A stretch of DNA of 64,000 nt, taken from Herbaspirillum sp. meg3 (lineage in GTDB: Bacteria > Pseudomonadota > Gammaproteobacteria > Burkholderiales > Burkholderiaceae_D). The notes beneath the pieces were generated by a model. That model did not search any database, was not told the origin of the DNA, and saw only the letters and a list, made by a program, of their open reading frames with translations. A program made the position numbers and the translations under genes. The DNA is taken from NCBI RefSeq assembly GCF_002257565.1, contig NZ_CP022736.1, positions 2,100,284 to 2,164,283 on the forward strand, written 5' to 3'. Numbering within the stretch: the first letter of the stretch is position 1; each line of letters opens with the position of its first letter. This document shows, piece after piece, positions 19,378-37,399 of the stretch.

Positions 19378-19998
19378 ATGACGACAGATTATAAAAATAC
19401 CCCGCGATCATTACGTGCCTCGGAAGCCATTGCAGACCGCGTTTCGAAGATCAACGAACCGCACGTTGCGGAGCTAACCAATTACGTCGGGCTGCTGCGA
19501 CAACGATTCCCTAATTCTTGGGAGTTTCCCGATTTTGATCCTTACGACGGCGGGCAAGAAGCCAAACTCTTGTTTCTGTTGGAGAAGCCGGGGCCGATGA
19601 CTTCCGCCAATGGAGGGAGTGGATCTGGATTTATTTCGAGGAACAACGACGACCCCACAGCTGCGGCAGTCTTCGATTTCATGGTTAAAGCAGGAATCCC
19701 ACGAGAGCGCACGGTTCTGTGGAACACGGTGCCAGGTTGGAACGGCAGTATCAAAATGTCCCAACAGGAACGTCGTGAGGGCCGGGCTGAACTTCCAACA
19801 CTTATAAATTTGCTGCCAAAGCTCAGGGGAGTTGTGCTGGTCGGGCGCCAAGCACAACGAGCCACGAAACAGATTCTGGAACTGAACGTGCCAGTTTTCC
19901 TGTCTAGTCATCCTTCAACTAAAGTGAGGTCTATTAATCCGCATCTCTGGAACGACATTCCGTTTCGTTGGGAGTCGGCTTTCGAGGCAATCGGGTAA
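19378..19998 (+). CDS. uracil-DNA-glycosylase-superfamily protein (UDG-like fold)
   Basis: 206 aa; …LLFLLEKPGPMTSANGGSG… (GExPG-like motif A) and …VFLSSHPSTK… (HPSP-like motif B). Confidence 0.55.
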   Translation: MTTDYKNTPRSLRASEAIADRVSKINEPHVAELTNYVGLLRQRFPNSWEFPDFDPYDGGQEAKLLFLLEKPGPMTSANGGSGSGFISRNNDDPTAAAVFDFMVKAGIPRERTVLWNTVPGWNGSIKMSQQERREGRAELPTLINLLPKLRGVVLVGRQAQRATKQILELNVPVFLSSHPSTKVRSINPHLWNDIPFRWESAFEAIG

Positions 19999-20072
19999 TT
20001 AATCGGCATGACCGTCCGCAACCGACCAGAGGCAAACACTGCCTAATACTTAAAGAAAAATCAGGAACGCAT

Positions 20073-21824
20073 ATGCGACTTTCAGAAGTTACGATTACGA
20101 ATTTTTGTTCATGTCATGATTTGACCATTCCGTTGGCTGGATTCAACCCAATTGTTGGGTATAACAACTCAGGAAAGTCTAACATTCTGCGAGCAATCAA
20201 TTGGTTGCTCAAAAAAGTGGTTCAGCCGGCGCACATGTTCCATGACGTAAACGAGCGCATGTGGGTAGCTGGTGTAATTGATAACGTAAACCTAGCACTG
20301 TTGCCACAGAACCAGCAGCAGGCGGTGGCACCATTTTTGAATGGGGGAGCACTGAAAGTCAGACGGATCCAACCTTCGCCCGGCTGCTCTGCGAATCAGG
20401 TCAAAGTCGAGGTATTCGACTATGCAACCAACAACTGGTCCGACAATCCCGCGGGGCTCGACAACGCGCTGGCAGTCTTGTTTCCCGAGCCGCTCTACAT
20501 TGAGGCGATGGAAAACGCCGGTGAAGATATTGGCAAGTTTGGTGCAAAGAACACCATTGGTTTATTGCTTAAACAGGTGCTCGCGCAGATTCAAGCTCAG
20601 AATGCGCCGGCGATTGCCGCTATGCAAGTCGCTTTCTCCCAAGTGTCGACCTTTCTTTCGGGGCAGCACCGGTTGGCCGAGCTTGCCACGTTCGAGACCA
20701 ATGCAAGCAACGCCATCACTTCCTTCTTTCCCGGACTGTCTCTGCACCTGAACTTTGCGACGCCGAGCATCGAGGAAATTTTTAAGACCTCCACAGTGAC
20801 TTTATCAGACTCTGAAGGGAGTCCTCGCCCAATATCGTCATTGGGGCATGGTGCACAGCGCAGTGCGCAAATGGCGCTTATCAAGCTGCTTGCCGACATG
20901 ACGAGCGCGACCGGAGGTAATCCAGGCGGCACCATCGTACTTCTGATCGACGAACCAGAACTGTGCCTACATCCGCAGGCGGTGGAGTTGCTGCGGGAAT
21001 CCCTGCTGCTGCTATCTACTCAAAACTTCCAGGTCATCTTCTCTACGCATTCGCCACTGCTCATAGGGCATACGCATGCGTTACAGACCCTTATGGTCTA
21101 CAAGGGAGCTAACAATCGTACGGTGGCGCGCCAGAAGCTGCAGTCGGCGGCAGATGCGCTGAATGCTAACCCGGCTCAGACCGAGGCGGTGTTTTCGCTG
21201 CAAGCAGCGACACATATATTATTTTCCGAGAAAGTCTTGTTGGTGGAGGGTAAGACTGAAATGATGTTGGTGCCATCAATCTACCAGACTGTAAAGGGGC
21301 GCTCCTATATGCACGACAGAGGTTGCCTAGTCTCTGGTTCCAGCAGTTCTTCGCTCCTGCCGATGATGGCCATTCTGCGCGCGGTGGGCTACGCACCCAA
21401 GGCCCTCGCAGACTTGGATTTCGCCTTCAAAGTGGCTACGAATTCCGGGCTGCTTTCCACTACCGATCCAGATATCTTGGCTTGCAAGACATGGTTTACC
21501 GCCAACGCTGCGCAACTCAACGTGTTTCTAGGCGCTGACGGACTTCCGACCAAACAAAGCCCTCAAGGTGTGTGGTCGGCCCTGAAACCCGCTGAGGTCT
21601 TCGAGCTGATGGCACAAGCAATGGCGGCTGAAGTAGATCGTATTGTGACCTCCTTGCGCGCACATAGCATCTGGCTTTGGTCCGGTGGGGCCATCGAAGC
21701 CCACCTCGGAATCCAAAAGAACAATCCTGCCCGTATTGGCTTCATCAACACTGCGCGGTTGAATGGCAACCTGAATCACGCGATTTCGCCGCAGACCTTG
21801 GTGGACTTGGCGCACTGGATGTGA
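20073..21824 (+). CDS. OLD-family nuclease (ABC-type ATPase + C-terminal Toprim)
   Basis: N-terminal …ITNF…PIVGYNNSGKSNILRAINWLL (OLD/AAA_15-21 P-loop), Walker B …VLLIDEPELCLHPQA…, Toprim …VLLVEGKTEMMLVPS… with …LADLDFAFK… (DxD). Confidence 0.8.
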   Translation: MRLSEVTITNFCSCHDLTIPLAGFNPIVGYNNSGKSNILRAINWLLKKVVQPAHMFHDVNERMWVAGVIDNVNLALLPQNQQQAVAPFLNGGALKVRRIQPSPGCSANQVKVEVFDYATNNWSDNPAGLDNALAVLFPEPLYIEAMENAGEDIGKFGAKNTIGLLLKQVLAQIQAQNAPAIAAMQVAFSQVSTFLSGQHRLAELATFETNASNAITSFFPGLSLHLNFATPSIEEIFKTSTVTLSDSEGSPRPISSLGHGAQRSAQMALIKLLADMTSATGGNPGGTIVLLIDEPELCLHPQAVELLRESLLLLSTQNFQVIFSTHSPLLIGHTHALQTLMVYKGANNRTVARQKLQSAADALNANPAQTEAVFSLQAATHILFSEKVLLVEGKTEMMLVPSIYQTVKGRSYMHDRGCLVSGSSSSSLLPMMAILRAVGYAPKALADLDFAFKVATNSGLLSTTDPDILACKTWFTANAAQLNVFLGADGLPTKQSPQGVWSALKPAEVFELMAQAMAAEVDRIVTSLRAHSIWLWSGGAIEAHLGIQKNNPARIGFINTARLNGNLNHAISPQTLVDLAHWM

Positions 21825-21972: not shown

Positions 21973-22995
21973 ATGCACTCAGACCAACATCCCGGCCGTC
22001 GCTTTGAAGAACTCGTGGCAGATTTGTTTAAGCGGATCCAAAAAGACAAAGTGATGTCTAACATCCAGCATCCTGGAGAATTAGGCCACGATTTCGAAGT
22101 AGATATTCTTTTTGGTAAATTGAACAATAGAACAGTGGTAGAGGTGAAACTCTACAGGTATTCATCTCCTCCACAGGTCGAAATTTTTGTCCGAGCACTG
22201 CGCCAAACTCAGCAAATCAAACGCAATGCGAACGCGAAAAGAGGCATTCTCGTAATTGGCTGCCCGATGACACCAATGCTCGAGGACGCCACAAAAGCAT
22301 ATAGCGAAATTGAGGTGTGGGATGCGAACGCTATTTTTAAGTACGCATCTCCATTTTCAGACCTATTAAAAGAATTCGAGCGGTTATTCGAAGTCAGTGC
22401 GTCGTTGGTTTCGGAGCCCCAATGGCCGGAGCTAAGGAATGAGATTCAAGGCTTACCACCAAAGCATGGTGAGCAGATATCTAGCGAACTCAAGTCGATC
22501 GAACCTGGAAGGGATGGGGCAAAGTCATTTGAAGACGCAAGCATCAAAGCGCTTCAATATCTATTCGATTCCGATCTTCACGGCTGGTATGAACAACACG
22601 AAACTGAAGATGGATTACATCGTCGTGACTTGATTTGCAGAATCCTCCCACAAGCCGAGGTGTGGCGCCTGATGCTTAATGACCTGCATAGCAGATACGT
22701 TGTCTTCGAATTCAAGAATTATTCAGAGCCTATCACTCAGTACGAAGTGGTGACGACCGAGCGATATCTATATCCGTCTGCGCTTCGTAACGTTGCAGTC
22801 ATTATTTCTCCAAAGGGATGCGCCAAGTCAGCGGACAAAGTCATTAGCGGCGCTATGCGGGAGCACGGAAAACTTATCATCTCTCTGACGGTAGATGAAT
22901 TGGAAAAACTTCTGGTTGGCAAAGACAATGGCGCCGATCCAAATACCTATCTTTTTCAGCGAGTGGACGATTTTCTTTTGAGTCTTGGGAGATAG
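21973..22995 (+). CDS. restriction-endonuclease-like protein, two PD-(D/E)xK-like modules (Mrr-cat-like N-terminus)
   Basis: N-terminal …RFEELVADLFKR…GHDFEVDILF…VVEVKLY… (Mrr-like D…E.K); C-terminal …RRDLICRI…YVVFEFKNY… second D/ExK-like motif. Confidence 0.55.
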   Translation: MHSDQHPGRRFEELVADLFKRIQKDKVMSNIQHPGELGHDFEVDILFGKLNNRTVVEVKLYRYSSPPQVEIFVRALRQTQQIKRNANAKRGILVIGCPMTPMLEDATKAYSEIEVWDANAIFKYASPFSDLLKEFERLFEVSASLVSEPQWPELRNEIQGLPPKHGEQISSELKSIEPGRDGAKSFEDASIKALQYLFDSDLHGWYEQHETEDGLHRRDLICRILPQAEVWRLMLNDLHSRYVVFEFKNYSEPITQYEVVTTERYLYPSALRNVAVIISPKGCAKSADKVISGAMREHGKLIISLTVDELEKLLVGKDNGADPNTYLFQRVDDFLLSLGR

Positions 22996-23115
22996 TTTAA
23001 ATTACCGATTGGCGACTGCTCGATTCTAATACTACCCTTGGCAACAACGAGGCGGAAGCGATGGAGAATGTCTAATATCGGCCAGAAACCGTTCAACGGC
23101 CAGTGAAAATACGCC

Positions 23116-23210
23116 ATTGCTGACTATCGATAATGGTGCGTTTTCGATAGTTGACAATGACTTGCGTGAATTGCGATTTGATACCATTTGATGTCCGCAT
23201 CGGCCAAGAA
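23116..23210. repeat. imperfect direct repeat, copy A (shares ~33-bp block with internal 7-bp inverted repeat and ~22-bp block with copy B)
   Basis: ctgacTatcgataatggTgcGttttcgatagTtgaca … tttgaTGtccgcAtcggcCaaga versus copy B at 29766-29870. Confidence 0.7.
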
Positions 23211-23585
23211 CTGCCACTGGAAGTATGTGAAAAAAGACATGATTTCACTGGGCGCGTGGAATTGAGAGAAAATCGAAATTGAGCCCGAGGCCCTTCGACG
23301 GATTCATAGCGCTGGCATTACACCAACGCTTATGCCTGACGTTGAGCGCCAAAATAGGATACGGCGCTATCAGAATGCGTTGGAAACGCTGGATGCGTTC
23401 GACGAATATGAATAATTAAATGTCTGCTACGGCCAATATCAGTTAAGAGGAACGTTTCAAATGGTTCGCTTTCGGTCACATACGGGCTTTCGTGATACAA
23501 AGATCAGCATTACACCAAAAAAATTGTGAATTACCGCCTCCTCAGCATCATCTTTGCGTACTTATTAGATTCTTCTTGATATCTC

Positions 23586-24110
23586 ATGCCACTAGTCTCC
23601 CCACCGTTGTATTGCGTCAGCTCAATCTGCATGACGCGACCTGAATGGATACAAAGCGCCGGCTATGTCATCGCCGCAGTGGTGGCCGCTTTTTCCATCT
23701 TTAGTTACTTCTATACACAGAAAAAACAGCGCTCTTTAGATATCGTGAAATTCTCTCTTGATCAGCACAGGCGACTTTTCGACGATGAAGTACTTTTCGA
23801 AATATTAAATCTGATCGATTCAGAAGACACGGAACAACGCAAACTAGCTGCCCCCTCTATGGGCAACAAGAAAAGAAAATTGATCACGTTCTTTGAAGAG
23901 ATGGTTCTTCTTGTGAGGGCAGGCTATATGTCAGAGGATTTCGCACTCTACATGTTTGGTTACTACGCCATGCAGGCCAGAAACAACCAGCACTTTATGA
24001 CCGATATCAGCACTGACCACGCTGACTTCGGGATTTTTTTCGATTTTGCAGAACAATATGACCAGAAAAAAGAAGTCATCAAAGTAAGCAGAGTTGGCAT
24101 TACTCCATAA
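23586..24110 (+). CDS. small membrane-anchored protein, hypothetical
   Basis: 174 aa (or 159 aa from ATG 23631); single N-terminal TM (…GYVIAAVVAAFSIFSYFY…); AT-rich codon usage. Confidence 0.5.
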   Translation: MPLVSPPLYCVSSICMTRPEWIQSAGYVIAAVVAAFSIFSYFYTQKKQRSLDIVKFSLDQHRRLFDDEVLFEILNLIDSEDTEQRKLAAPSMGNKKRKLITFFEEMVLLVRAGYMSEDFALYMFGYYAMQARNNQHFMTDISTDHADFGIFFDFAEQYDQKKEVIKVSRVGITP

Positions 24111-24182
24111 AAATGCGCGGAACGCTTTCAATATAGTTCGCTTTAGTCATTTCAACTTCGAAGTAGTACAGCCCGCATTTAT

Positions 24183-27107
24183 ATGGCAACTGTCGAATAT
24201 CGATCCAATCGTTTCCCCAAGTCCTCCTTCGCGTCTTATCCCATCTCAATACCCGCGCTGGCTGCGGCATACCAGGCTTATTGTTCTGGTTTGCTGAGAA
24301 CGGATGACGAAGCCCGATTCTTTATCCAATCGTGGGTCGGGGCTCAAGACACACCACTGGATGCCGCTAAGCTCATTATTGAGACCTTTGTAGAAAAACA
24401 AGATCACGAATCATCAGATGATTCCTTTCAATGGCGGTGTCGATGCTGTGCTCGTCTGGTATCCGTGATCGAAAGCACAGCCGAAGCTGTAAATGAGCAT
24501 CCGGCATATCGTGCAGCCATTTACGCCGTACAACGGTTTCACCCGTATTTGTTCAAGGAGATTCTGACCCGATTACTGCTAGGACCTTATGGCCGTAAAG
24601 TAGCCAATAAAGCAGATTTATTCACTCAGCTCGCTCTGGCATTCGATTTTCTAGGTTTTCGCAAACGCAGTGAGGCTCTTTTACGGAATGTCCAAATCAT
24701 GTCGCGTTCCGGCGCTGTGCAGGCCGCCACTGCAGATTTCTCGCTACGCCTGTTGTCAGCGATATGTGCTTTGACAGACAGGTTTGAGCAGGTATTTTTC
24801 TTGAATGCTGAAGCGGAACCTTATGCCGAAACCGTATACGGATTATCTCCCCTTCAAGTTGATATCGCGTGGACATTGGCGGTATGTGGAACCGGAATGG
24901 TAGCGGAAGCAGCACCGCCCACACTATTTGAAATCACCGTGCACGCTCTAAGACATATCGAAAAACGAAATAAGGCCTCTGAGGATCTAACCAACGTTGA
25001 TATGCTAATGCACGGTTTGGATCGGAGTCGACGACCTGGTCTTTCCTCGTTGTCTTGCATAACCACACTCCGAATTTTGCGCGAAGCCCCGCCTGAAGAT
25101 CTTGATGATGCAGATCTCGCAATGACATTTGTTAATACCGGTAATGCTGTTCTCAGAAATATCGCCCTAACGTCCAATTGGAATCTCGTGGCTCGCCACT
25201 TCTTCACGGAACTAATAAGGCTCGTAGATAGTGGAGAAATTAACAGGAGCCCAAAAGTTCAGTATCAAGTAGCCCTCGCCAATGCTGGCATTGGCTATTC
25301 TTATACAAATATCGCCAGTGCAACCGAGGGAATTGAGCAGGTGGACTTATATGAGAAAGCCCGAGAACATCTAGACGCTGCTATCGAGCTACTCAAGCAC
25401 TTTCATGACGATAACTGGATTGAAACCAGCGTCTGGGCTGTTTCTGGTCATGTTGAAGCAGCTTGTGGTCGAATTCAAAAAATGCATCAACGCTTCGCCG
25501 CTGCGTTATTGGCAGGTGCAAAATACTATCAGCTCGATGTTGAAGACCTCGTCCATTTTTTCAGCCCGGATTACGATACAAGGTTAAAGTACAGCGAAGC
25601 ATTGGTCACTACAGGCGAATTTCATACGGCTATTCTATTGGCGAAGGCTGCTGTCAGTGCAATTCATCACCATGCGGCACCGTCAGAAGAGGTAGCAGAG
25701 TTTGCGCAAGCATACATAAGCACTAGGACCTTGGCGCACCGAACACTAATCAACGAATTAAGCCAAGTTGGAAGATACAACGAAGGTGAGCTCGCATACG
25801 ACCTCTTGAAGCAGAATGAATACAATGAATTTACCAGGCGCTCATATTCTCGGGAACAGGTAGCTCAGTATGTCGCACTGACTCCTTTCGAGCTAGAGGC
25901 GATTCGGGAGTCTGGCTTAAGTGAAGCTACCGTCAATGCAAAGCAGATGGAGCATAGAGAGACCACGGTGAAGCTGCTTGCTCAAAGTTTTTCAGGATTG
26001 AATGAAGCCTTAAAGGAACGAATCAGAAGCCGCCATCAGCCAGATGATCTGGAGTCAAGACAAAACCGTATCGATCCATCGACACACCTGAGAGAAACTG
26101 AAGCGATTCTCCGTTTTGTCGCGTCGGGATCGGCAGTCTCGATTGCATTCTCGAGTTCCAAGATAAAAAAGCAACTTGTAGTTCCTTTTGATGAACGAGT
26201 GCTCGGGCCACTAATTTTTTCCTTTAGGCAGCAATGCCGCTTACCAACGTCTGAGCTGCAATCGGTGCAAGTACTTGGACATGAGCTATATCGTATTCTG
26301 CTTTCCCCAATTACAGATTACATCGACAACAATATCTCGCACCTCTACATTGAAACGGATCGCACCCTCGCTAACGTCCCGTTCGCGGCTCTCCATGACG
26401 GCGTCAATTATTTGATCCAGCGCTTTTCTCTCATTTACTTGAATAGAGGTGCATTGAGCATAGTGCCTAAATCAAACGTTGTGGAAACTGAGCACGCCGC
26501 GATTTTTGCTTGTACGGACGCGCCTGGAGAAGAGCTGCCCGGTGCCGGACAGGAGATTAAAATCATTGGTAATCAGCTTGGCAGAATGTCCCGCTTAACC
26601 GTGGATTGCTACGTCGATGAGAAATGTGCAGCCGAGGCTTTTGTACGTGAAATCATTAGGCCTCGCGGCGGGAAAGGTCTAATTCATTTGGCAACGCACG
26701 CAAACTTCAACCCTTCAAGCGACATATCATCAGGATTGATGTTTCATGATGAAGTACTAAGCATTCGTGACCTGAGAACAGAACTGGAAAAGTCAGGTTG
26801 TGATACGGGTCTCTTTGTCCTCTCCGCTTGTGGCACAGCTCGTCAGGACATTGATGTGGAAGGTTTCAGCTCAGTTTTACTCCGATCTGGCGTCAGAACC
26901 ATCCTCCCAACACTTTGGGAAACATTTGACGATTCTGCGCCAGAGTTCTTCCGTCTTTTCTACGCAGATATCCGCGACCTGTCATCCGCATCTTCCGCTG
27001 CATCTGCAGTGAGAGCCGCTCAGCTAGCATTCCTTACATCAAGTTCAGAATTCGCCCATCCGGCTCACTGGGCCCCATACATAGTTGTCAGTGCACAGGT
27101 TTCGTAA
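24183..27107 (+). CDS. CHAT-domain protein (caspase-like protease) with large N-terminal helical region
   Basis: C-terminal ~300 aa: …GLIHLATHANF… (catalytic His), …GLFVLSACGTARQ… (catalytic Cys), C-terminal …HPAHWAPYIVVS… typical CHAT ending. Confidence 0.8.
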   Translation: MATVEYRSNRFPKSSFASYPISIPALAAAYQAYCSGLLRTDDEARFFIQSWVGAQDTPLDAAKLIIETFVEKQDHESSDDSFQWRCRCCARLVSVIESTAEAVNEHPAYRAAIYAVQRFHPYLFKEILTRLLLGPYGRKVANKADLFTQLALAFDFLGFRKRSEALLRNVQIMSRSGAVQAATADFSLRLLSAICALTDRFEQVFFLNAEAEPYAETVYGLSPLQVDIAWTLAVCGTGMVAEAAPPTLFEITVHALRHIEKRNKASEDLTNVDMLMHGLDRSRRPGLSSLSCITTLRILREAPPEDLDDADLAMTFVNTGNAVLRNIALTSNWNLVARHFFTELIRLVDSGEINRSPKVQYQVALANAGIGYSYTNIASATEGIEQVDLYEKAREHLDAAIELLKHFHDDNWIETSVWAVSGHVEAACGRIQKMHQRFAAALLAGAKYYQLDVEDLVHFFSPDYDTRLKYSEALVTTGEFHTAILLAKAAVSAIHHHAAPSEEVAEFAQAYISTRTLAHRTLINELSQVGRYNEGELAYDLLKQNEYNEFTRRSYSREQVAQYVALTPFELEAIRESGLSEATVNAKQMEHRETTVKLLAQSFSGLNEALKERIRSRHQPDDLESRQNRIDPSTHLRETEAILRFVASGSAVSIAFSSSKIKKQLVVPFDERVLGPLIFSFRQQCRLPTSELQSVQVLGHELYRILLSPITDYIDNNISHLYIETDRTLANVPFAALHDGVNYLIQRFSLIYLNRGALSIVPKSNVVETEHAAIFACTDAPGEELPGAGQEIKIIGNQLGRMSRLTVDCYVDEKCAAEAFVREIIRPRGGKGLIHLATHANFNPSSDISSGLMFHDEVLSIRDLRTELEKSGCDTGLFVLSACGTARQDIDVEGFSSVLLRSGVRTILPTLWETFDDSAPEFFRLFYADIRDLSSASSAASAVRAAQLAFLTSSSEFAHPAHWAPYIVVSAQVS

Positions 27108-27152
27108 AAATTTTCCTCACAAATTAGAATACAGCGTAAGGATTTTTTCCCT

Positions 27153-27389
27153 TCAAGCTAGATAGCTTGGCCCGGTTCCTGCGAGCTTTTTGCCACTCTG
27201 CGAATAGACAGCAGCAATATCGGCAATAGATCCAATATTGAAGAATACCTGAGGTTCGATCGAAATAGATGGCCCCACTGCCGGATCCAGAACGAACGGC
27301 ATTTCTCTGTGATGATCTTCCCCCTCAAGAGTATCCCAATGTAACGTTAGTTTGATCCGGAAAATCAGACGGGTCATATCGCCGACCAT
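27153..27389 (-). CDS. hypothetical small protein (doubtful)
   Basis: 78 aa ORF in gap between CHAT gene and next gene. Confidence 0.25.
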   Translation of the reverse strand: MVGDMTRLIFRIKLTLHWDTLEGEDHHREMPFVLDPAVGPSISIEPQVFFNIGSIADIAAVYSQSGKKLAGTGPSYLA

Positions 27390-27487
27390 AACTATGCTTC
27401 ATTCTGCAAATAGATGCTCTATGAGGGCTAAAGCTTCGATTCATCTCACATCGTATAATCTCGAAAAATAATTACTACGTTAGAAAA

Positions 27488-28525
27488 ATGAAAAATATCA
27501 AAGCAATGATGGCTGGGGTGGCCGTCATGAGTGTTCTCTCCTTTGCTCATACAGAAGAGCTAAAGCTCACCAGAGAACAGGAGATTGAATTCAATACGAA
27601 TGGAGCCTCTTTCTACTTGGCTCAAATGCTCAAACAAGAGAAGGCTATAGCTGCGATTCCAGAAACGGAGATTGCGGTGTTCTCTGCAGCCGCTGGAATC
27701 AACAGACTTATCGCGGCGCAGAAGGAGACCGGTAAATTAAATCAGCAGCAGTTCGCTTTTGTTATGTCAGTTGTCCTCGTACGCCTTGCTATCTTGTCTC
27801 AAACAGCCAATATGCCGCCAGCAGTGACCGCTTGTCACTTTGCTGAAGCCAGAAATCTTGAGAACGTAAGCAAGGGCAAGCCTCCAGTGATGCCAAACTG
27901 CCGAACTGATGCCTACGGTCCAGATATTCAAACGGATGCCCTCAGGGTGGTTTCTAAGCCATCCTGGGCTCCAAATAATGCGCTGACAAATAAATGGGTA
28001 GTGAATGCTTTCTCATATGCGGAGGCAATAGGGGTAGTTTCGATGTACGGCACTACTCCTGCCCCTAAGATTGAACCTGAGAAGCCAAGAGACCAGAAGA
28101 ACAATGTTTCTATGTTGGACATGTACAAGAAGGCTGATGATCGAGGGAAGGTGGCCATCTGTGCTCCCATGCTTTGGAAGTACGGAAGTATGAAAGGACT
28201 TGGCATGCAGCTTGAGATTAAGGAAAAAGGAAAGCAGTACAGCCCTGGCGAATTTGAGTTCTTACGTCAAATCAGCATGAATGCTGAGCTCCTTAAAGCT
28301 TCTGCTATCCAGGTTTCCAAAACAGCTTATGATAAAGCTTGGAAAGACTCTGCCAATGATCCTGTACTTCTTACTGGTCAAGGTTTCGCTGATGGTGCGA
28401 AAATGTGTTTTGAATATGCCGAAACACTCACTAAAAAAGGGTGGTTCCTGCCATCTGAAAAAATCAACGCTGAGAATGTCGCTGCCAAATTCGTTCAGGA
28501 TGTTAAAGCGGGAATATCCAAGTAA
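27488..28525 (+). CDS. secreted hypothetical protein
   Basis: 345 aa; clear signal peptide MKNIKAMMAGVAVMSVLSFAHTEE. Confidence 0.55.
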   Translation: MKNIKAMMAGVAVMSVLSFAHTEELKLTREQEIEFNTNGASFYLAQMLKQEKAIAAIPETEIAVFSAAAGINRLIAAQKETGKLNQQQFAFVMSVVLVRLAILSQTANMPPAVTACHFAEARNLENVSKGKPPVMPNCRTDAYGPDIQTDALRVVSKPSWAPNNALTNKWVVNAFSYAEAIGVVSMYGTTPAPKIEPEKPRDQKNNVSMLDMYKKADDRGKVAICAPMLWKYGSMKGLGMQLEIKEKGKQYSPGEFEFLRQISMNAELLKASAIQVSKTAYDKAWKDSANDPVLLTGQGFADGAKMCFEYAETLTKKGWFLPSEKINAENVAAKFVQDVKAGISK

Positions 28526-28780
28526 TAAACTAAGCCCTCAAAAGCGCTTTTAGGAGAGGGACGCAGTCTCCGAGTTTATGATGGAACAACGTATATCCTC
28601 ATTCAAGAGAAATCAGAATTCTATAAATGGTGCGCGGCTGTTTTACCCGACGCCTATAAATGTTTTTTGTATAGTCGAGCAAGCATTGTTCAGTAGTAAG
28701 TTTGATTAAAAGGAAGCTTCGGATTCCTTTTATTTAGGCGGAATGTTTAGAACCATAAGATTCGTAAGAGGGGATATGAA

Positions 28781-29608
28781 GTGATTGATTGGGATAGCAA
28801 TGTTGTAACGGCGCTTGCCACGGGACTGCTGGCATTCATTGGTGTCGCCCAGATTGGAATACTGGTTGCTCAACGTCGGCAAAGCCAGCTCGAACTCATT
28901 GAGCAGTACCGCAGGCGATGGTATGAAACTAGGAAAGATTGGGGCGCCATCATTTTTCTCGGGCGTGACGATGGCGACTACTATCAGGTAGTGGATGCAG
29001 GGACGATCAAGAAATTTGTTGTTGAGAGAGACGATGCTAGTCCGTACGGCCCTACTATTTGGGCATTGGACGCCGCCCGTGCTGTCTTCACCTCGTTAAG
29101 CGATATCGGCACGAGAATTCTGCAGGGCCAATTGCATATTAGGGACGTGTACCCGATCTTTGGTACTGAGTTGTTGCGCCACAGCTATCCATTGAGGGCC
29201 CTACTAGACAACGGATACGTGGAACAGCGAGCTTCTGCAGCCCATCTCAAGGTGAGGACTGAGATTCAAGATTGGTTGGTGTATCACGATGGAATACGCC
29301 GGCGGTGCCTGATATTGATTGATTTGCTTTGGGCAGAAGCCGCGCGACTTGAAGATCTTCCTCCTTTAGATCTGCAACATGCGGCAGATGCAAAGGCTAG
29401 AACTGGGAAACAGAACAAACGTCGACTATGGGTAGAGTGCGTTCGATTAAACGGTATTCGAGGGTTATATTTGGCATCCAGACTTGCTCGTTCTCTGAGA
29501 CACGCTGAGTATCGTCGTTTAGGATCTCGAATTGGGATTGATAAAGAGCGCTTGCAGTCTTTAGACGAAGAATGGACGAAACGACTGCTCAATCGATTAC
29601 TTAAGTAA
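28781..29608 (+). CDS. membrane-anchored hypothetical protein
   Basis: 275 aa; N-terminal TM (…VTALATGLLAFIGVAQIGILVAQ…). Confidence 0.5.
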   Translation: MIDWDSNVVTALATGLLAFIGVAQIGILVAQRRQSQLELIEQYRRRWYETRKDWGAIIFLGRDDGDYYQVVDAGTIKKFVVERDDASPYGPTIWALDAARAVFTSLSDIGTRILQGQLHIRDVYPIFGTELLRHSYPLRALLDNGYVEQRASAAHLKVRTEIQDWLVYHDGIRRRCLILIDLLWAEAARLEDLPPLDLQHAADAKARTGKQNKRRLWVECVRLNGIRGLYLASRLARSLRHAEYRRLGSRIGIDKERLQSLDEEWTKRLLNRLLK

Positions 29609-29765
29609 TCTGGACTTCAATTTAGAGGAGAGAAGTTTATAGACTTCCTTCCGCTTGATCTCGTTCTAGGGATATACACATAGCAACAATTATCAAGAGC
29701 AAACTCTTCGTCCGCAATTGGAAGAAGCAGTCGTTGAACAACTCAGCGAAAAATCCACCCAAGCT

Positions 29766-29870
29766 GACCATCGATAATGGCGCATTTTCGATAGCTGACA
29801 GTAAATGAGTGGAGTGAACCCAGAGGCGGATTACAGTTCGGAATTATTTGACATCCGCAATCGGCGAGAT
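29766..29870. repeat. imperfect direct repeat, copy B
   Basis: ctgacCatcgataatggCgcAttttcgatagCtgaca … tttgaCAtccgcaAtcggcGaga; spacing between blocks 15 nt longer than copy A. Confidence 0.7.
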
Positions 29871-29995
29871 CTGCTATTTAATATTTCTCAAGATTCGTTA
29901 AAAAATAATTTCACACTAAAGATTGGGCGCGACACGTGTCGCGAGGCGATGATTGGCCTGCAGCGTGTTTGGTAAAGCCGAGAAAAATACTCCTA

Positions 29996-30367
29996 TTAAA
30001 CATCGTTTGATCTAGCAGCCTTCATCAAACATTTAGACATTTTGGCTAAATGAGACTGCGCCGCCTTTGTCAGATTGACCTGCTTTCGCCTTCCATCCTC
30101 AGTATCACCTAGCGCAATCCATCCTTTAGCGATTAACGATTTCAGGCGCTGATGAATCGTCACTGATGAGCCAAGCGTGCTTGCAGATGTAATGTCAGTG
30201 ACGGACACTCGTGCTTCCGCACGCAAGGTACGTGCGATATGGTCGAAGATTTTCTGTTCTAATGGATCAAGAGCGGGGAGGTCTTGAATCGTTTCTATTA
30301 GTTCAAGAAACCGAAGGTAAATATCCATGCCTTTTTTTATCTTTGTAGAGCTCATAGTAAATCTCAT
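29996..30367 (-). CDS. small winged-helix transcriptional regulator (MarR/PadR-like)
   Basis: 123 aa; …VTDITSASTLGSSVTIHQRLKSLIAKGWIAL… HTH-like. Confidence 0.45.
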   Translation of the reverse strand: MRFTMSSTKIKKGMDIYLRFLELIETIQDLPALDPLEQKIFDHIARTLRAEARVSVTDITSASTLGSSVTIHQRLKSLIAKGWIALGDTEDGRRKQVNLTKAAQSHLAKMSKCLMKAARSNDV

Positions 30368-30420
30368 CCTCTGATCAGAGCGTTATTCTAATTCGACAAA
30401 AAAATACATAAAAGGTTGCG

Positions 30421-30984
30421 ATGGCACGTGATGAGTGGGTTCGAGTGAATTTTTTCATGGTAGCAGCTTCAGTTTCGATTTTCCTCATTTCCCTGGTAGT
30501 CAATGAAATTGTCTTCCCTCGGCTGGATTTCATTACTGGGGTTAATTGGATTTATCTGCCAGCTGGAATGAGACTGTTATGCACGTTACTGTTTGGTGAG
30601 GCAGGTGCCGCCGGAATATTGATCGCCTCCTGGTTGGCCTGCTTTTGCTATTTCTTCCCCAACGATCTCTTACGCTCTTTTGCAGGCGGAATTATCTCTG
30701 CTCTCGCGCCGTATCTTTCTTATCGTTTTATGTCCGAGCGCTATCACTTGAGTTCATCGTTGCGCGAGTTGACCGGAAATCGGTTACTGAAAGGCGTAGT
30801 TCTATATGCAATTGCAAGCTCATCAATGCATCACTTGTGGTTTTTTCTAGTGAGAGACATTCACGCATCCCTGGCTAGTTGGGGAGTGATGTTTATTGGA
30901 GACTTAACTGGGTCTTTAATCGTTCTCTATATAGTTAAGGTAGTCATTGGCTTATTCAAGACGGTTCGTATCGGCCCGAAGTAA
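30421..30984 (+). CDS. polytopic membrane protein, hypothetical
   Basis: 187 aa, 5-6 hydrophobic helices. Confidence 0.5.
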   Translation: MARDEWVRVNFFMVAASVSIFLISLVVNEIVFPRLDFITGVNWIYLPAGMRLLCTLLFGEAGAAGILIASWLACFCYFFPNDLLRSFAGGIISALAPYLSYRFMSERYHLSSSLRELTGNRLLKGVVLYAIASSSMHHLWFFLVRDIHASLASWGVMFIGDLTGSLIVLYIVKVVIGLFKTVRIGPK

Positions 30985-31339
30985 GCAGATCACGATCCAG
31001 TATGGAAACCGAATAGATTCGTACATAGTAATTACATTTAATTATTAATTTTAATTGGTAATCGAAAATATTCCGCTGATATACTGGGTAGTCATCTAGA
31101 CGCACTTGGTAAACAATAGGAATCAACATACTTGTCATCATGTTTTTTGACGAGGTCTATCCAAAGTTTTTCCGTTTTGAATCGAAGTCCTCCATAGATT
31201 TCTCATGATTGGTAGGTCTGTAGAAGCAAGTTCGTTTGTGATGTGACATCGGGGTGCTTTTGTCGGGGTAACGCGCCTTCAGCTAGTGGTCTTGACGGGG
31301 CCTTTTCAGGCCGTTTTAAAAAAGAATAAAAAGGTTGTT

Positions 31340-32662
31340 ATGGCCATAATTGATTTGGTGAAATGGAATGGAAATCCTTCCATTTTGGCTTGGCGTTTCC
31401 CGAGTGATCAACTTTCTACCTGGACTCAGCTGATCGTCAACGAGACGCAAGAAGCCTACCTTGTCAAAGAAGGGGTCTACCAAGGTCCATTTGGGGCTGG
31501 ACGGCATACTCTAGATACCGAAAATATACCGCTGCTGGCATCGTTAATGGGCTTGCCGTTTGGAGGGAAGTCGCCGTTTACTGCAGAGGTTTGGTTCGTA
31601 AATCGACTGACGAATCTTGATATAAAGTGGGGTACATCCGACCCTATCCAGCTACAAGATCCGAAATATCAGCTGATGGTACCTGTGCGGGCATTCGGCC
31701 AGTATGGCGTTAAAATTTCTGATGCGAAGAAATTCCTCCTCAAACTTGTCGGTACTTTACCCGGTTTTGATTCGGCCACATTGGCTGAATATTTCAAAGG
31801 TGTATTCACTACCAAGATCAAGACCAATATTGCTCAGGCCATTATAAAAAATGGTCATTCGGTGTTGGAGATATCGACTCACCTGGAAGCGCTCTCAGAA
31901 ATACTCAAGACGTCACTCGCTCCCGAAATGGAAGAGTTCGGCGTTAGCTTAGTGCAATTCAACATCCATTCCATCAACGTTCCGGAGACTGATCCTGCGG
32001 TCATCAGCTTGAAGGCTGCGTTGGCCAAGCGCACTGAAATGGGAATACTAGGATTCAACTACCAGCAAGAACGCAGTTTCGATGTATTGCAAACAGCCGC
32101 CGGCAATGAAGGAACTGCGGGGGGTGTAATGGGCGCAGGGATGGGACTAGGGATGGGCGCGGCGATAGGTGGGCCGATGGGTGGTGCCTTCGCGCAGATG
32201 ACTCCTATTATTCAGCCTAGTGGTCCAGCTGGCGGTTCTGGTGGAGCGCCACTGAAGTGTCCGAGTTGCAGCGCATCCAATCCCCCGGGAACACGTTTCT
32301 GTGGCTCTTGTGCGGCCAATCTTAATGCAGCAGGCATTTCTGCAAAAGCTGGCATTACCTGTGACAAATGCGGAACGAATATTCCTAGCGGCTCGAAGTT
32401 CTGCCCGAACTGCGCAGACGAAGTGAATCCATGCCCTGCTTGTGGCGAGGATAACGCCAAAGGCTCCGCCCAATGCCGAAGCTGTAAAACGGCGTTACCA
32501 GTTCCATGCCCAACGTGTGAAGCATCGGTGCCCACCGGTTCCAAGTTTTGCAATTCGTGTGGTAGCAAGATGACGCCCTCGTGCTCCAAATGTGGCGCTG
32601 AGCTCGTTGCTGGAGCCAAGTTTTGTAACGACTGCGGTCATCCTCAAAATCCAGCTTCATAG
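31340..32662 (+). CDS. SPFH/band-7-like protein (COG4260, virion-core-protein-like) with five C-terminal zinc-ribbon repeats
   Basis: N-terminus MAIIDLVKWNGNPSILAWRFPSDQLSTWTQLIVNETQEAYLVKEG… characteristic of COG4260; C-terminus has 5 CxxC…(F/Q)CxxC units (e.g. CPSCSASNPPGTRFCGSC, CDKCGTNIPSGSKFCPNC). Confidence 0.7.
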   Translation: MAIIDLVKWNGNPSILAWRFPSDQLSTWTQLIVNETQEAYLVKEGVYQGPFGAGRHTLDTENIPLLASLMGLPFGGKSPFTAEVWFVNRLTNLDIKWGTSDPIQLQDPKYQLMVPVRAFGQYGVKISDAKKFLLKLVGTLPGFDSATLAEYFKGVFTTKIKTNIAQAIIKNGHSVLEISTHLEALSEILKTSLAPEMEEFGVSLVQFNIHSINVPETDPAVISLKAALAKRTEMGILGFNYQQERSFDVLQTAAGNEGTAGGVMGAGMGLGMGAAIGGPMGGAFAQMTPIIQPSGPAGGSGGAPLKCPSCSASNPPGTRFCGSCAANLNAAGISAKAGITCDKCGTNIPSGSKFCPNCADEVNPCPACGEDNAKGSAQCRSCKTALPVPCPTCEASVPTGSKFCNSCGSKMTPSCSKCGAELVAGAKFCNDCGHPQNPAS

Positions 32663-32680
32663 TCCAATCAGACCTTCTCC

Positions 32681-33373
32681 ATGAAAACTGCTTCTTTAAT
32701 GAATATCGCCGCATTGGTAGTGGCCGTGACAGTTGCGACAATCGTTTTCATTTTGGTGCCTGAGCCTGCATGGAATTCCACAACGATTGCTACTGCGATT
32801 GCTTTTGTAGCGGCGATGGGATTTGTTTTCTATATTCCGTCTGTTCTGCGAAAACAGCATAAAAATACCGAGGGACGCGTGCAGCTGGCAGCGATTGGGC
32901 CGACCGGAGCGGTCAGCCTTCTCCTATTGCTGGTGACCGCAGGAGCTTTCGCGCTGGCGCTTGCGAATCATCCAGCTTGGGGGCTCGCACTTCTGACTTT
33001 TGGCATTGGAGCTTTCGTTGTCGCAAGTCTGATGCTGAACGCAGCATTGAAAGTTGTAGGGAACGTCTCCGTGAAATCGTCTGCGCCCAGTCGCCACATT
33101 GAATGGCAACGACAAGTATCGGCCATGGCCTTGCAATCGACACATCAAGAGTCTCTTGCAAAGCTGCGCGCAGTCGAAGAAAACTTTCTCTATTTGGCTA
33201 GCGATGTGCCAGGTGGCAGCCCATATGACGTCGATGTAGACCAGACTCTTAATGCTGTGTCGGATCAATTAGCACTAGACGGGGCGAACGATTTGCTCGG
33301 TCAGTTACGCAAACTTGACAAGCTCATCGCGCAACGCGATATCTACCTGCGCTCTGCTCGCAGCAAGATTTGA
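32681..33373 (+). CDS. membrane protein, hypothetical
   Basis: 230 aa; 4 N-terminal TM helices then soluble tail; 19-bp gap after upstream gene. Confidence 0.55.
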   Translation: MKTASLMNIAALVVAVTVATIVFILVPEPAWNSTTIATAIAFVAAMGFVFYIPSVLRKQHKNTEGRVQLAAIGPTGAVSLLLLLVTAGAFALALANHPAWGLALLTFGIGAFVVASLMLNAALKVVGNVSVKSSAPSRHIEWQRQVSAMALQSTHQESLAKLRAVEENFLYLASDVPGGSPYDVDVDQTLNAVSDQLALDGANDLLGQLRKLDKLIAQRDIYLRSARSKI

Positions 33374-33424
33374 TACTTGGCTTGCCGACAAAATTCTGAA
33401 CTTAACAATATCAGGGGATATGAA

Positions 33425-35506
33425 ATGGGAAACGCTTGTAATTCGTGCGGAGCGGAAATCGTCTTTGAAGCTGGAAAGCAATCGCTAGTCTGCGAATTTT
33501 GTGGCGCAGTCAACCGAGTTGAACGACCAGAAGACGCGTTAGCGACTTCGTTTGACCGCATAGTTCCCATTGCCGTCACTCCTCAAGAAGTCGATTACAA
33601 GCTCTATACCTATATGAGCACGGGTAACTTCACGCCTGACGACATGATCGAGGCATCAACTATCACGTTACGAGAACACTATTACGTTCCCGCGTTCGCA
33701 TTCAGGGTGGACTACGAAGCTACATGGACCGCATCGTTTGGTTTCGACAGGCAGGAACCATACACCGCCTATCGTAGCGTTACTCGTAATAACCGTACCC
33801 ACCAGGAAGCGTACACCGCTTATAAAACGGTCACGGATTGGCGTCCGGCAAACGGCATTGAGGCCGGCATATTTGATGTCGCAGGTTATGCAGGGAACCG
33901 TTTGAACGGTTCCTCCCTCGCGCCTGCAAATTTGGTCGTTGATGCAGTCATGCATGGCAGTTCTACCGAATATAACGCCTCTTTCACCACCGGCTTTGAG
34001 GTCGAAGAATTTTCGGCATCAGAAAAAAAGGTTTTTGATTCGTTGGATAGCGAAATCAATGCCGGGATCGATCAGCGCGTGAAGCATCACGCGCAAGGGG
34101 ACAAGCAACGGGACTGGCACTGGAATGCGCGAATGAGTCACGCCACCACGACATATGCCGTGCCAATTTCTCATGTGACATTTCAATATGGCGAAAAGGA
34201 ATACAACATCTGGATTGGTGGGCACAACGTGGATGCTATTCGAGCAGATGACTTACCTGTCGACCATGATAAAAAGAAGGCTGCCAACATTGGCTTTGCT
34301 CCCGCTGCCTTTGGACTGATCTCTACGGCCGGAACGGCATATGTCTGGGGCTTTGCGGGAACGAGTTTGATAGCCACTGCCATTGCTCTAGGCTATGGAT
34401 TCATGCGACGCAAGGCGCTGATTGACTACTCCAAGTCAATCCGTAGTTCGTTGTTGACGCAAATGCAAGCTTCAAATCAAGTAGTTGCTGGACTGAGCGA
34501 TGAGGAACAACTTAAGGTCACCAAAGCATTTCAACGACCAGAGCGCCCATTATTTGCCAGTATTCATAAGGATAAAATTGTCTTACCTGCACTCGCTGCT
34601 TTCGCTTTTTTTGGAGCTATTGTGCCCAATGTGGTCCTTAGTCCTGCGGCGATTGAACAGCGTGCCATTGCGCGCCAAAATTCGGAACGAGCTGAGCAAT
34701 ATCGGTTAGCCGCTCTGGCACGTACTGCGCAAGAGGAGGCTGAGCGCAAGGCAGACGACGACGAGCGAGCGGCCAGAAAAGCAAGAATTGAGGCTGTTGC
34801 GGCTCAAAAGGCCGAGGCTGAGGCCGCTGGACAAAATGGCACGGAAGTCGCTGCGACACAGGCGACACCTGTTCAGGAAAATGCGTCAGTCCAGAACACC
34901 GTGCCTGTTGCGTTACCTGTCGCTGCGGCTGACAGCCGGGTACCTATCAACGTAGCTGGGAGATTCACCATACTTGCTCCGGACGAGTCGAAGCAATTGC
35001 TTACCGCCATGCTTCAACAAGCAGCCAGTACTTTTAAGATCGCTCAACTCAAAGGTCAAATAGAAGCACTTCCAAAGCCAATGACCGGTGATCGAAAAGC
35101 AGCCCGAAAGCTGAACGACCAAGGTCTTGCAGCATTGAAATCTGGTGACTACGCGCAAGCGGTTCTTGCGCTGAAAAATGCTACGTCTACCGACTCTGCG
35201 GACGTCGAAGTATTAAATAACTACGTATACGCTTTGATCAAAGCGCAGCGCATGCGCGAAGCGGAGTCCGAGGCTGGACGTTTGTTGACCTTCAGTCCGG
35301 GACGTGCGTCGGCGTGGGCAAATCTTGCAGAGATCTATGCACAAACAGAGAAAAAGGAAGAAGCTGTAGCCGCTTTGGTTCTGGCGTTCCAATTTTCCTC
35401 GAACAAGGATCGTACTATTACTTTTTTGAATGAGCGAGCAGGTGATCCGAGTTCGCCACTGCAGCTGGTCGCAAAGAAGGCAATAGAAGTAATCGAAAAA
35501 TTGTAA
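33425..35506 (+). CDS. zinc-ribbon / TM / coiled-coil / TPR multidomain protein
   Basis: Starts MGNACNSCGAEIVFEAGKQSLVCEFCGAVN (zinc ribbon); central hydrophobic segment (…FAPAAFGLISTAGTAYVWGFAGTSLIATAIALGYGF…); Ala/Glu/Arg-rich coiled coil; C-terminal TPR-like repeats; AGGGGA RBS. Confidence 0.6.
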   Translation: MGNACNSCGAEIVFEAGKQSLVCEFCGAVNRVERPEDALATSFDRIVPIAVTPQEVDYKLYTYMSTGNFTPDDMIEASTITLREHYYVPAFAFRVDYEATWTASFGFDRQEPYTAYRSVTRNNRTHQEAYTAYKTVTDWRPANGIEAGIFDVAGYAGNRLNGSSLAPANLVVDAVMHGSSTEYNASFTTGFEVEEFSASEKKVFDSLDSEINAGIDQRVKHHAQGDKQRDWHWNARMSHATTTYAVPISHVTFQYGEKEYNIWIGGHNVDAIRADDLPVDHDKKKAANIGFAPAAFGLISTAGTAYVWGFAGTSLIATAIALGYGFMRRKALIDYSKSIRSSLLTQMQASNQVVAGLSDEEQLKVTKAFQRPERPLFASIHKDKIVLPALAAFAFFGAIVPNVVLSPAAIEQRAIARQNSERAEQYRLAALARTAQEEAERKADDDERAARKARIEAVAAQKAEAEAAGQNGTEVAATQATPVQENASVQNTVPVALPVAAADSRVPINVAGRFTILAPDESKQLLTAMLQQAASTFKIAQLKGQIEALPKPMTGDRKAARKLNDQGLAALKSGDYAQAVLALKNATSTDSADVEVLNNYVYALIKAQRMREAESEAGRLLTFSPGRASAWANLAEIYAQTEKKEEAVAALVLAFQFSSNKDRTITFLNERAGDPSSPLQLVAKKAIEVIEKL

Positions 35507-36428: not shown

Positions 36429-37397
36429 CTAAAGTAGACTTGGAATCTTCCGTTTCGCTACAGGCCTGATATACCGTGCCAGTGTCACGTCCGACTTGTG
36501 CCCAGTCTGCTCACGAATTTGATAGGGCTGTAAGCCTACGATCGCGGCCTCGGTACAGTATCCAGCACGCAAACTATGGCCGGAGACGCATTTGGCGGCG
36601 TCCGCACCACTCATTCTACGAACAGCGGACTTCACGATCAGGGCTACTGATTGGCCTGTCAGCGCTTTGTCACCAACTGCCTGGTCGTGACGGTTAAGAG
36701 GGCGAAACAGCGGTCCCGCCGCAATGCCAGCAAGTTCCATCCACACTTTGAGGGCCTTGACCGGGCAGCGGCTGCCCTTGGCATGCGGGATGAACACGAC
36801 TCTGCCCGCTCCTTCCTGGTCCGTCTTGGATCTCCGGATCAGCAGTTCGATGCCGTTCTCAAAGTAGGTCATATCCTCCACCTTCAGTGCCACTAGCTCA
36901 GACCTCCGGAACGCACCCGCAAACCCAATCAAGATCAAGGCCTTATCACGTGCAGCACGCATTGGTTTCTGCTTGTCCACCAGCACCATCAGTTCCAACA
37001 AGTCATCTTTGACGAGAGCCTTGACTCGGCGCTGTACGGTGCCAAAGGTGCGTCTGATACCCTGCATGGTGCGCTTCACCAATCGATCCATCACTGGCGA
37101 AGGAAGCTGATCGTCTGTATGGGCGCGATGAATGGCGATCAGTCTGTGCTGGAGGGTTGCCACCGCCGTCGTGCCTGCACATTCCGCCAGGTAATCTGCG
37201 ATCATCTCGGGCGTAGCCGGTATGGTGCCGCCATGGCTTTTGAAATGACTCAAATCCGCTTCATAGCTGCGCTTAGTGGCTCGCGACTGCGCCGCTGCCG
37301 CATATGTACTTGCGCTCGCCGAAACCGTAGGTGAATCAGTCTCTGCATGCTCTGGTGCTATGGGACGGCCGGAACCTGCTTGTTTGCTCGCGCTCAT
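36429..37397 (-). CDS. tyrosine recombinase / integrase (XerD-like, second copy in island)
   Basis: Start at ATG 37395-37397; N-terminal SAM-like …TKRSYEADLSHFKSH…; C-terminal …GHSLRAGYCTEAA…TLARYIRP… (R-H-R-Y catalytic pattern). Confidence 0.8.
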   Translation of the reverse strand: MSASKQAGSGRPIAPEHAETDSPTVSASASTYAAAAQSRATKRSYEADLSHFKSHGGTIPATPEMIADYLAECAGTTAVATLQHRLIAIHRAHTDDQLPSPVMDRLVKRTMQGIRRTFGTVQRRVKALVKDDLLELMVLVDKQKPMRAARDKALILIGFAGAFRRSELVALKVEDMTYFENGIELLIRRSKTDQEGAGRVVFIPHAKGSRCPVKALKVWMELAGIAAGPLFRPLNRHDQAVGDKALTGQSVALIVKSAVRRMSGADAAKCVSGHSLRAGYCTEAAIVGLQPYQIREQTGHKSDVTLARYIRPVAKRKIPSLL

Positions 37398-37399
37398 GA

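Follow-up and report, generated by a model that had tools for sequence, protein, structure and literature searches.

The 64-kb window analysed here, the whole 64,000-nt stretch of the Herbaspirillum sp. meg3 genome, carries at 23586-27107 two adjacent genes that appear to form an undescribed operon, a candidate anti-phage system borne as cargo of a genomic island. Gene 1 encodes a 174-aa single-pass membrane protein, and gene 2 encodes a 974-aa CHAT protease that is 100% identical to the record hmeg3_09655 of Herbaspirillum sp. meg3. An earlier note on this DNA had centred on the same protease a 6.7-kb cassette (23116-29870) bracketed by imperfect direct repeats, and had proposed a protease-activated membrane effector system that might be exchanged through those repeats. 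The four same-strand open reading frames that it listed are present as described: a single-span 174-aa protein, the CHAT protein, a protein with a signal peptide and another membrane protein. Comparison across genomes indicates that the cassette resolves into three independent units and a separate family of small non-coding repeats, and that the functional unit is the two-gene pair.

Relatives of the CHAT protein were sought among 5.8 billion protein clusters. Only 13 full-length ones were found, of which twelve share 52-66% identity with it and the thirteenth 33%, and the surroundings of seven relatives were retrieved. An exact-sequence look-up gave no record for the window's CHAT protein or for the Solimicrobium protein P0035. 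A homologue of gene 1, 174-178 aa long, precedes the CHAT gene on the same strand by 63-90 nt in Paludibacterium (L001), in Massilia (L003) and on three metagenomic contigs (L007, L008 and L010). With the window included, the small gene directly precedes the protease gene in six of seven distinct genomic contexts, the relatives in question being 52-66% identical. Across these five loci the small protein shares 71-79% identity with that of the window and the protease 51-65%, while every neighbour other than the pair differs. Since the flanking genes change from locus to locus, the pair evidently moves as a unit. Around the CHAT loci, with or without the small gene, stand ParE, GASH/DO-GTPase/caspase systems and a Gabija-like pair, and Tn7-like cargo is also among these settings. 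Searches with blastn and tblastx disclosed no shared upstream DNA, no extra small open reading frame and no third conserved gene at the CHAT loci.

In Massilia (L003 2019-8808) and on one metagenomic contig (L007 13191-19920) the pair adjoins the same five-gene conflict system, consisting of GASH, DO-GTPase2, DO-GTPase1, GAP1-N1 and a Peptidase_C14 caspase. The system stands upstream of the pair in one genome and downstream of it in the other, and the association could either reflect a functional connection or be a chance meeting within defence islands. In Janthinobacterium (L005 1790-9471) the CHAT orthologue is preceded by a short CHAT protein of 356 aa, an unknown protein of 332 aa and a lipase of the LCAT/PGAP1 type; beyond this cluster, further upstream, are two Peptidase_C14 proteins, and a Gabija-like pair of an ATPase-TOPRIM protein and UvrD follows the CHAT gene.

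The product of gene 2 scores 148.3 bits (E 4.2e-43) on the Pfam CHAT profile (PF12770), whose cutoff is 24; the match runs through residues 698-969 and profile positions 3-287 of 289. The catalytic histidine and cysteine named in the earlier note can be read directly from the DNA, as HLATHAN at 26685-26705 and SACGT at 26823-26837, and correspond to His839 and Cys883. Both are unchanged in an alignment of 14 homologues, and in six distant TPR-CHAT proteins the HLAxH(G/A) and LSAC motifs occupy the corresponding positions. Because the profile score and the dyad agree, the protein can be assigned to the CHAT family, and the protease looks catalytically competent.

An AlphaFold2 model of the protein (pLDDT 75, pTM 0.61) places an all-helical repeat solenoid at about residues 22-616, a short three-strand beta unit at 640-668 and the CHAT domain at about 670-974, with His839 and Cys883 following strands 833-838 and 877-883. 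A structure search of the N-terminal 650 or so residues for a TPR- or ARM-like fold had been suggested earlier, and a helical-repeat solenoid of this kind is what the model contains. The best matches in the PDB by Foldseek are Csx29/TPR-CHAT proteins of the type III-E Craspase (E 5e-10 to 1e-7; the top hits 7zoq_A, 7y8t_B, 7xsr_C and 8d9f_A have E 5e-10 to 3e-8, with 5e-10 for 7zoq_A), together with the TPR-CHAT anti-sigma factor DdvA (8rw5, 9e-9) and SAVED-CHAT (7e-4). The global TM-scores of these matches are low, at 0.28-0.44, with a target TM-score of 0.44 for 8d9f_A, and no solved structure matches the protein at the sequence level. No hydrophobic segment is present (maximum 19-residue hydropathy 1.28). 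The model thus describes a protein that is probably soluble and cytoplasmic, with an architecture like that of Csx29 or separase, in which a helical-repeat arm leads into a CHAT caspase-like domain.

The product of gene 1 has one hydrophobic segment, at about residues 22-44, with one lysine or arginine before the span and four after it. From hydropathy and this charge bias the protein is predicted to be N-out/C-in, which would leave its helical bundle of about 130 residues in the cytoplasm. In the AlphaFold2 model (pLDDT 86.6) a short N-terminal beta-hairpin with two conserved cysteines leads into a long helix that holds the membrane span, and this is followed by the helical bundle. The family alignment is marked by the motifs QHRRLFDD, KRKxxTFFEE and YMFGYY. 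The nearest Pfam family is DUF4760 (PF15956), which matches residues 31-126 below its cutoff (17.8 bits against 25, E 0.0038); the Paludibacterium orthologue carries the DUF4760 label in UniRef. For the small-protein family no solved structure is related by sequence, and a search of a viral fold library gave only a single borderline, unnamed match. The earlier note had wished the 174-aa protein compared with gasdermin-like folds, and the modelled fold turned out to be helical and not gasdermin-like. As that note had also stated, neither a gasdermin-like partner nor an NTPase is found in the module by Pfam, PADLOC or fold comparison.

Since the protease lacks a membrane segment, and its partner is predicted to expose its large domain to the cytoplasm, the two proteins can meet. 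Taken together, a competent-looking CHAT protease, a defence-type island (described below) and a conserved membrane partner make a conflict module of protease and membrane protein a fair reading of the locus. This part of the earlier proposal stands, with two genes in place of four. In its specific form, to which we give a probability of roughly 45%, a cytoplasmic sensor-protease would act on or through an exchangeable membrane protein and cause abortive infection. The helical-repeat arm would hold the protease off until it binds a ligand or protein derived from the infection. The activated CHAT domain would then act on the cytoplasmic domain of the 174-aa protein, most simply by cleaving it, and the freed membrane-embedded part would oligomerise and collapse the integrity of the membrane. 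The anti-phage role, the division into sensor and executor, the cleavage of the gene 1 product and the membrane damage are all putative elements of this scheme.

Several observations weigh against it. In Janthinobacterium (L005/L006) a 60%-identical CHAT gene has neither an intact nor a residual small gene beside it. In the 33%-identical relative, which is cargo of a Tn7-like element (L012), an unrelated 196-aa gene stands upstream of the protease gene. From these loci it follows that the protease can persist alone. Furthermore, two of the loci with the complete pair (L008 and L010) lie among housekeeping genes. The independent CHAT loci number only about eight, and all but one belong to Betaproteobacteria or to metagenomes without a taxon. 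Neither the 174-aa nor the 974-aa protein has a match in PADLOC-DB 2.0.0 at E <= 0.01, the literature searched contains no description of a CHAT protein paired with a small membrane protein, and no cleavage site can be named in the gene 1 product.

The main alternative is an arrangement of opposite logic, in which the CHAT protease itself is the toxic executioner of cellular or phage proteins and the membrane protein restrains it or senses phage DNA entry or envelope stress. The membrane protein would do likewise for the DUF7946/DUF7947 protein with which its sister family is paired (see below). Such a keeper would fit with the membrane protein being the more conserved partner, and with the targets of known CHAT proteases, including the closest folds Csx29 and SAVED-CHAT, being soluble. 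A membrane protein common to unrelated soluble partners may be a shared sensor or anchor as well as a shared effector, and the lone protease of Janthinobacterium points the same way. Yet loss of an inhibitor there should be lethal unless the protease were disabled, and the orthologue keeps both HLATHA and LSACGT; with both catalytic motifs retained, the lone protease is compatible with an effector role of the membrane protein and with a keeper role alike. One keeper for two unrelated proteins would also be unusual, as antitoxin-like proteins are normally specific to their partners, and the helical-repeat arm of about 600 residues already looks like a sensor by analogy with TPR-CHAT proteins. 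The keeper arrangement is accordingly held unlikely, if worth bearing in mind. The effector role of the membrane protein is ranked first because a component common to different sensors is more often an effector than a sensor or antidote.

A role outside defence was also considered, in which envelope or developmental cues would lead the CHAT protease to release or degrade a regulator anchored in the membrane, much as has been proposed for DdvA. This anti-sigma factor ranks with the best fold matches, and the position of L008 and L010 among housekeeping genes would suit such a signalling pair. Neither protein contains a sigma factor or DNA-binding domain and none is conserved beside the pair, which makes a signalling role less likely. 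The distribution is patchy, with few full-length relatives among the clusters searched, and the variable neighbourhoods, the islands and the Tn7-like cargo fit accessory conflict genes better. Regulated proteolysis of this kind is therefore regarded as improbable.

The membrane protein of the pair has a sister branch of about 189 aa that shares 35-45% identity with it. A scan of species-representative genomes provided 30 loci (L016-L045). In 25 of them the sister gene lies downstream of a gene of about 276 aa encoding DUF7946 and DUF7947, and abuts or overlaps its end. The hosts of these 25 pairs are Beta- and Gammaproteobacteria and one metagenome-assembled genome of Sumerlaeaceae. The same arrangement recurs in Burkholderia (L014/L015) and on two IMG/VR viral contigs (L053/L054). 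The sister pairs are often accompanied by recognised defence genes. Phage integrase (6) and AAA_21 (5) lead the Pfam families encoded no more than 6 kb away from them, with TIR found twice, and PADLOC identifies nearby type II restriction-modification, PD-Lambda-2, ThsB, bSEFIR, DRT reverse transcriptases, SoFic and parts of MADS. Against the PADLOC profiles the sister pair itself gives matches at noise level only (E >= 0.003). One sister-branch member scores 14.1 bits against DUF4760, where the cutoff is 25. The DUF7946/7947 family has no solved structure related by sequence, and its possible kinship with the N-terminal arm of the CHAT protein was rejected at an hhalign probability of 0.2%. 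The literature searched holds nothing on DUF7946 and mentions DUF4760 only in passing. The DUF7946/DUF7947 protein and its small membrane partner thus apparently form a second, commoner and likewise undescribed two-gene pair.

One small protein, 64% identical to that of the window, occurs in Solimicrobium silvestre (L018 610-4942) without a CHAT gene. A RelA/SpoT-domain protein is encoded about 650 nt upstream of it, and an unknown 314-aa protein and a DUF2971 protein follow. By its gene order this locus represents a third partner context. A broader proposal can be framed from these contexts, namely that bacterial immunity uses DUF4760-like single-pass membrane proteins as a so far unrecognised membrane effector module, which is exchangeable and serves at least three unrelated cytoplasmic partners (the helical-repeat CHAT protease, the DUF7946/DUF7947 protein and the 314-aa Solimicrobium protein), with the CHAT version switched on by proteolysis. 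As a generalisation this is speculative and rather doubtful.

The repeats that bracket the four genes are real. The earlier note had described two shared blocks with a spacing difference of about 15 nt, and the analysis recovers both: a direct repeat of 51 nt with 82% identity between 23106-23156 and 29750-29800 (spacing 6644 nt), and a second block, seen in a pairwise alignment, near 23180-23210 and 29850-29880, the right copy carrying a 16-nt insertion. They are parts of a non-coding element of about 150 nt, of which a profile search finds no third copy in the window. Its 25-nt core, ATCGATAATGGYGCRTTTTCGATAG, occurs exactly twice in the window against 0 expected from 100 shuffles. Written in full, the element core is GCTGAC-TATCGA-TAATGGCGCATTT-TCGATA-GCTGAC (37 nt, with N13 in the middle and a last block of G(T/C)TGAC) and would form a 7-bp hairpin. 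It hardly varies between the two copies in the window and those on four metagenome contigs. On L046/L049 the element comes after two small genes that by eye resemble a Phd/ParE-type toxin-antitoxin pair, and in L047 and L048 it occurs as single copies in further, differing contexts; in three of the four contexts it stands at the 3' ends of genes. No copy was found in plasmids, nor in 185k species-representative genomes, among which the source genome is evidently not included.

Other identities of the element were considered and set aside. Both window copies can be read as LTIDNGAFSI(V/A)D, and the two differences within the core fall in third codon positions, as a coding relic would predict, yet they do so in an antisense frame as well. 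A current gene was rejected, as the L047 copy has one stop 5 codons before the motif and another directly after it; closed by stops, the element is evidently not an open reading frame. Its core is kept at the DNA level while the flanks drift. A known RNA was likewise dismissed, with no Rfam match at E <= 1; the alignment folds only weakly (-11 kcal/mol), and its hairpin shows no covariation. Terminal inverted repeats are absent from its ends by eye. The element can therefore be classed as a separate small non-coding repeat family that is not part of the CHAT pair.

That the four genes act together and are exchanged via these repeats, as first proposed, is very improbable. To its credit, the repeats are direct and bracket exactly these four same-strand genes, whose products include two membrane proteins and one protein that is probably secreted. 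Elsewhere the bracket does not recur: neither this element nor any other flanking repeat is present at the other CHAT loci, an outcome that the earlier note had itself named as speaking against its proposal, and the element occurs singly in unrelated contexts, such as after the Phd/ParE-type pair in L046. In the alignment of the window copies the longest unbroken identity measures about 11 nt, which makes them unlikely sites of homologous exchange. A search of other genomes for the repeat-bracketed cassette, as the earlier note had advised, came back empty, since the 345-aa gene, the 275-aa gene and the repeats are missing from every other CHAT locus; the Mrr-like, winged-helix and MASE1-like proteins that flank the bracket likewise have no homologue there. 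The bracket is a genuine but local feature.

The 345-aa and 275-aa genes are separated from the pair, with a gap of 380 nt after the CHAT gene and one of 255 nt before the 275-aa gene. The 345-aa protein has no Pfam, NCBIfam or PADLOC match and is rare: among 1.84 billion proteins it has no more than 30 representative clusters. The family of the 275-aa protein, by contrast, is large and keeps other company: more than 330 homologues at 50-76% identity are spread over Proteobacteria, cyanobacteria (Synechocystis Slr0666), Bacteroidota and Verrucomicrobiota. Identities of 50-60% between these groups are unusually high for such distant hosts and suggest frequent horizontal transfer as a single-gene unit. 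Its relatives in L050 and in Deefgea (L051/L052) have other neighbours, without the repeat element or a 345-aa homologue. One relative bears the UniRef label DUF4760; a paralogous relation to the 174-aa protein was rejected, since profile-profile comparison detects no similarity (hhalign probability 0.2%). Both genes are best regarded as passengers, neighbours of the CHAT pair and not components of it.

The wider setting places all of these features in one island. Across about 10.6-42.6 kb of the window the G+C content drops from about 58% to 44-53%. This dip, a tRNA-Ser gene, copies of its 3' end and a P4-type integrase together identify 23116-29870 as part of a low-G+C tRNA-Ser island of about 31.5 kb, and the second integrase at 36429-37547 suggests that the island is composite or tandem. 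The two integrases are 12 kb (left, P4-type) and 7 kb from the 6.7-kb segment. Pfam and PADLOC scans also detect in the island a DUF4238 protein, a uracil-DNA-glycosylase-superfamily gene, an Old nuclease and a protein with an Mrr-type endonuclease domain, a content that reads as that of a typical defence island. The feature coordinates are gathered in the table.

Table. Features of the window and copies of the repeat element outside it (window coordinates unless a contig is named).
Feature	Position	Strand	Remarks
Copies of the tRNA-Ser(gct) 3' end	10869-10883 (15 nt) and 11045-11058 (14 nt)		Left side of the island
P4-type integrase	11248-12534		Adjoins the tRNA 3'-end copies; belongs to the tRNA-Ser island
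206-aa uracil-DNA-glycosylase-superfamily gene overlapping the start of full-length Old nuclease	19378-21824		PADLOC Old 1.3e-195
340-aa protein with N-terminal Mrr_cat endonuclease domain	21973-22995		Directly upstream of the left repeat copy
Left copy of the ~150-nt non-coding element	23076..23227	+	Profile search
174-aa single-pass membrane protein (gene 1 of the pair)	23586..24110	+	Open reading frame
974-aa CHAT protein (gene 2 of the pair)	24183..27107	+	Open reading frame; Pfam CHAT
Codon of predicted catalytic His839 (HLATHA)	26697..26699	+	Read directly
Codon of predicted catalytic Cys883 (LSACGT)	26829..26831	+	Read directly
345-aa protein, signal-peptide-like N-terminus	27488..28525	+	Open reading frame; N-terminus read from sequence
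275-aa protein, N-terminal membrane segment	28781..29608	+	Open reading frame; Slr0666-like family
Right copy of the ~150-nt element, with 16-nt insertion	29726..29888	+	Profile search
123-aa winged-helix protein and 187-aa multi-span MASE1-like membrane protein	29996-30984		Divergent pair, just beyond the right-hand repeat copy
SPFH/Band-7 protein with four C-terminal zinc ribbons; 230-aa membrane protein; 709-aa protein	31286-35506		Three abutting same-strand genes
Second integrase	36429-37547	minus
tRNA-Ser(gct)	42539-42632	minus	Right boundary of the island
Element copies outside the window	L046 3555-3708; L047 484-650; L048 1-105

Several neighbours of the segment add to this picture. The uracil-DNA-glycosylase-superfamily gene and Old may together constitute a variant of Old with two genes, in place of Old on its own. 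The C-terminal half of the 340-aa Mrr_cat protein has a weak match to the PADLOC candidate PDC-M36A (2.6e-7). For the 123-aa winged-helix protein, matches to LexA/MarR are weak and those to CARF3 are at noise level. The 709-aa protein, which begins with a zinc ribbon and has TPRs at its C-terminus, closes a trio of genes at 31286-35506 that may be another operon of the island. Between the left repeat and gene 1, a plus-strand frame at 23262-23415 reads EKIEIEPEALRRIHSAGITPTLMPDVERQNRIRRYQNALETLDAFDEYE and then a stop, without a start codon, and may be a gene relic. A scan for promoters and terminators returned counts at the level of shuffled sequence and was uninformative.

In Craspase, in SAVED-CHAT cascades and in the activation of gasdermins, bacterial immunity is increasingly seen to be switched by CHAT and caspase-like proteases, and to our knowledge very few of their substrates have been identified. 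In the Csx29 systems the protease stays inactive until something is sensed, whereupon it cuts a dedicated partner whose gene lies close by. Csx29 is the best structural match of the window's protease and has the same order of a helical-repeat (TPR) arm and a CHAT domain with a His/Cys dyad. In contrast, the arm is about twice as long here, the TM-scores stay at the low values given above and the partner is a membrane protein. Cas7-11/gRAMP, a CRISPR array, Csx30, Csx31 and a sigma factor are all absent from the scanned island genes and from the seven homologous loci, and no tandem or direct repeat array is present in 22000-31000.

Bacterial gasdermin systems, in which a protease unleashes a membrane-damaging partner, resemble the pair in gene order, with the membrane-acting gene first and the caspase-like or CHAT protease second, as well as in their defence-island setting and in the logic proposed. 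The difference lies in the partner, as no gasdermin-fold protein is encoded next to the window's protease. DUF4760 and the Slr0666-like 275-aa family share with the 174-aa protein a small size, a membrane anchor at the N-terminus and a helical domain behind it, although the match to DUF4760 remains below the Pfam cutoff; we know of no function for DUF4760. The likeness of the repeats to the boundaries of an integron cassette or a miniature inverted-repeat transposable element fails in that they do not bound the same cargo in other genomes with the CHAT gene.

A further comparison is offered by DdvA of Myxococcus xanthus, a transmembrane TPR-CHAT anti-sigma factor of the separase/craspase type that is linked to the control of phage defence and for which autoproteolysis followed by intramembrane proteolysis has been proposed (PMC11506125). 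The TPR-CHAT architecture, the link to a membrane span and the fold match with 8rw5 are common to both. DdvA combines in one polypeptide a membrane span, a zinc-binding anti-sigma domain and a periplasmic CHAT domain with an incomplete active site, and is partnered by an ECF sigma factor. The protease of the window differs in being, by prediction, soluble and cytoplasmic with a complete dyad, its membrane span residing on a separate protein, and no sigma or anti-sigma Pfam match lies nearby.

The CHAT family itself is known; what appears to be new is the coupling of a stand-alone CHAT protease with a helical-repeat arm to a membrane partner of a new kind. The locus would thus provide a minimal, two-gene case in which a stand-alone TPR-CHAT protease has an obvious candidate substrate or partner, the 174-aa membrane protein. 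The connection with the DUF7946/DUF7947 pair, which is far more frequent, would offer a first lead on what three uncharacterised domains do, and suggests that one membrane module is re-used by different sensors. If the DUF4760-like protein does act as an exchangeable effector, it would be a non-gasdermin counterpart of the cell-death switch that leads from caspase to gasdermin.

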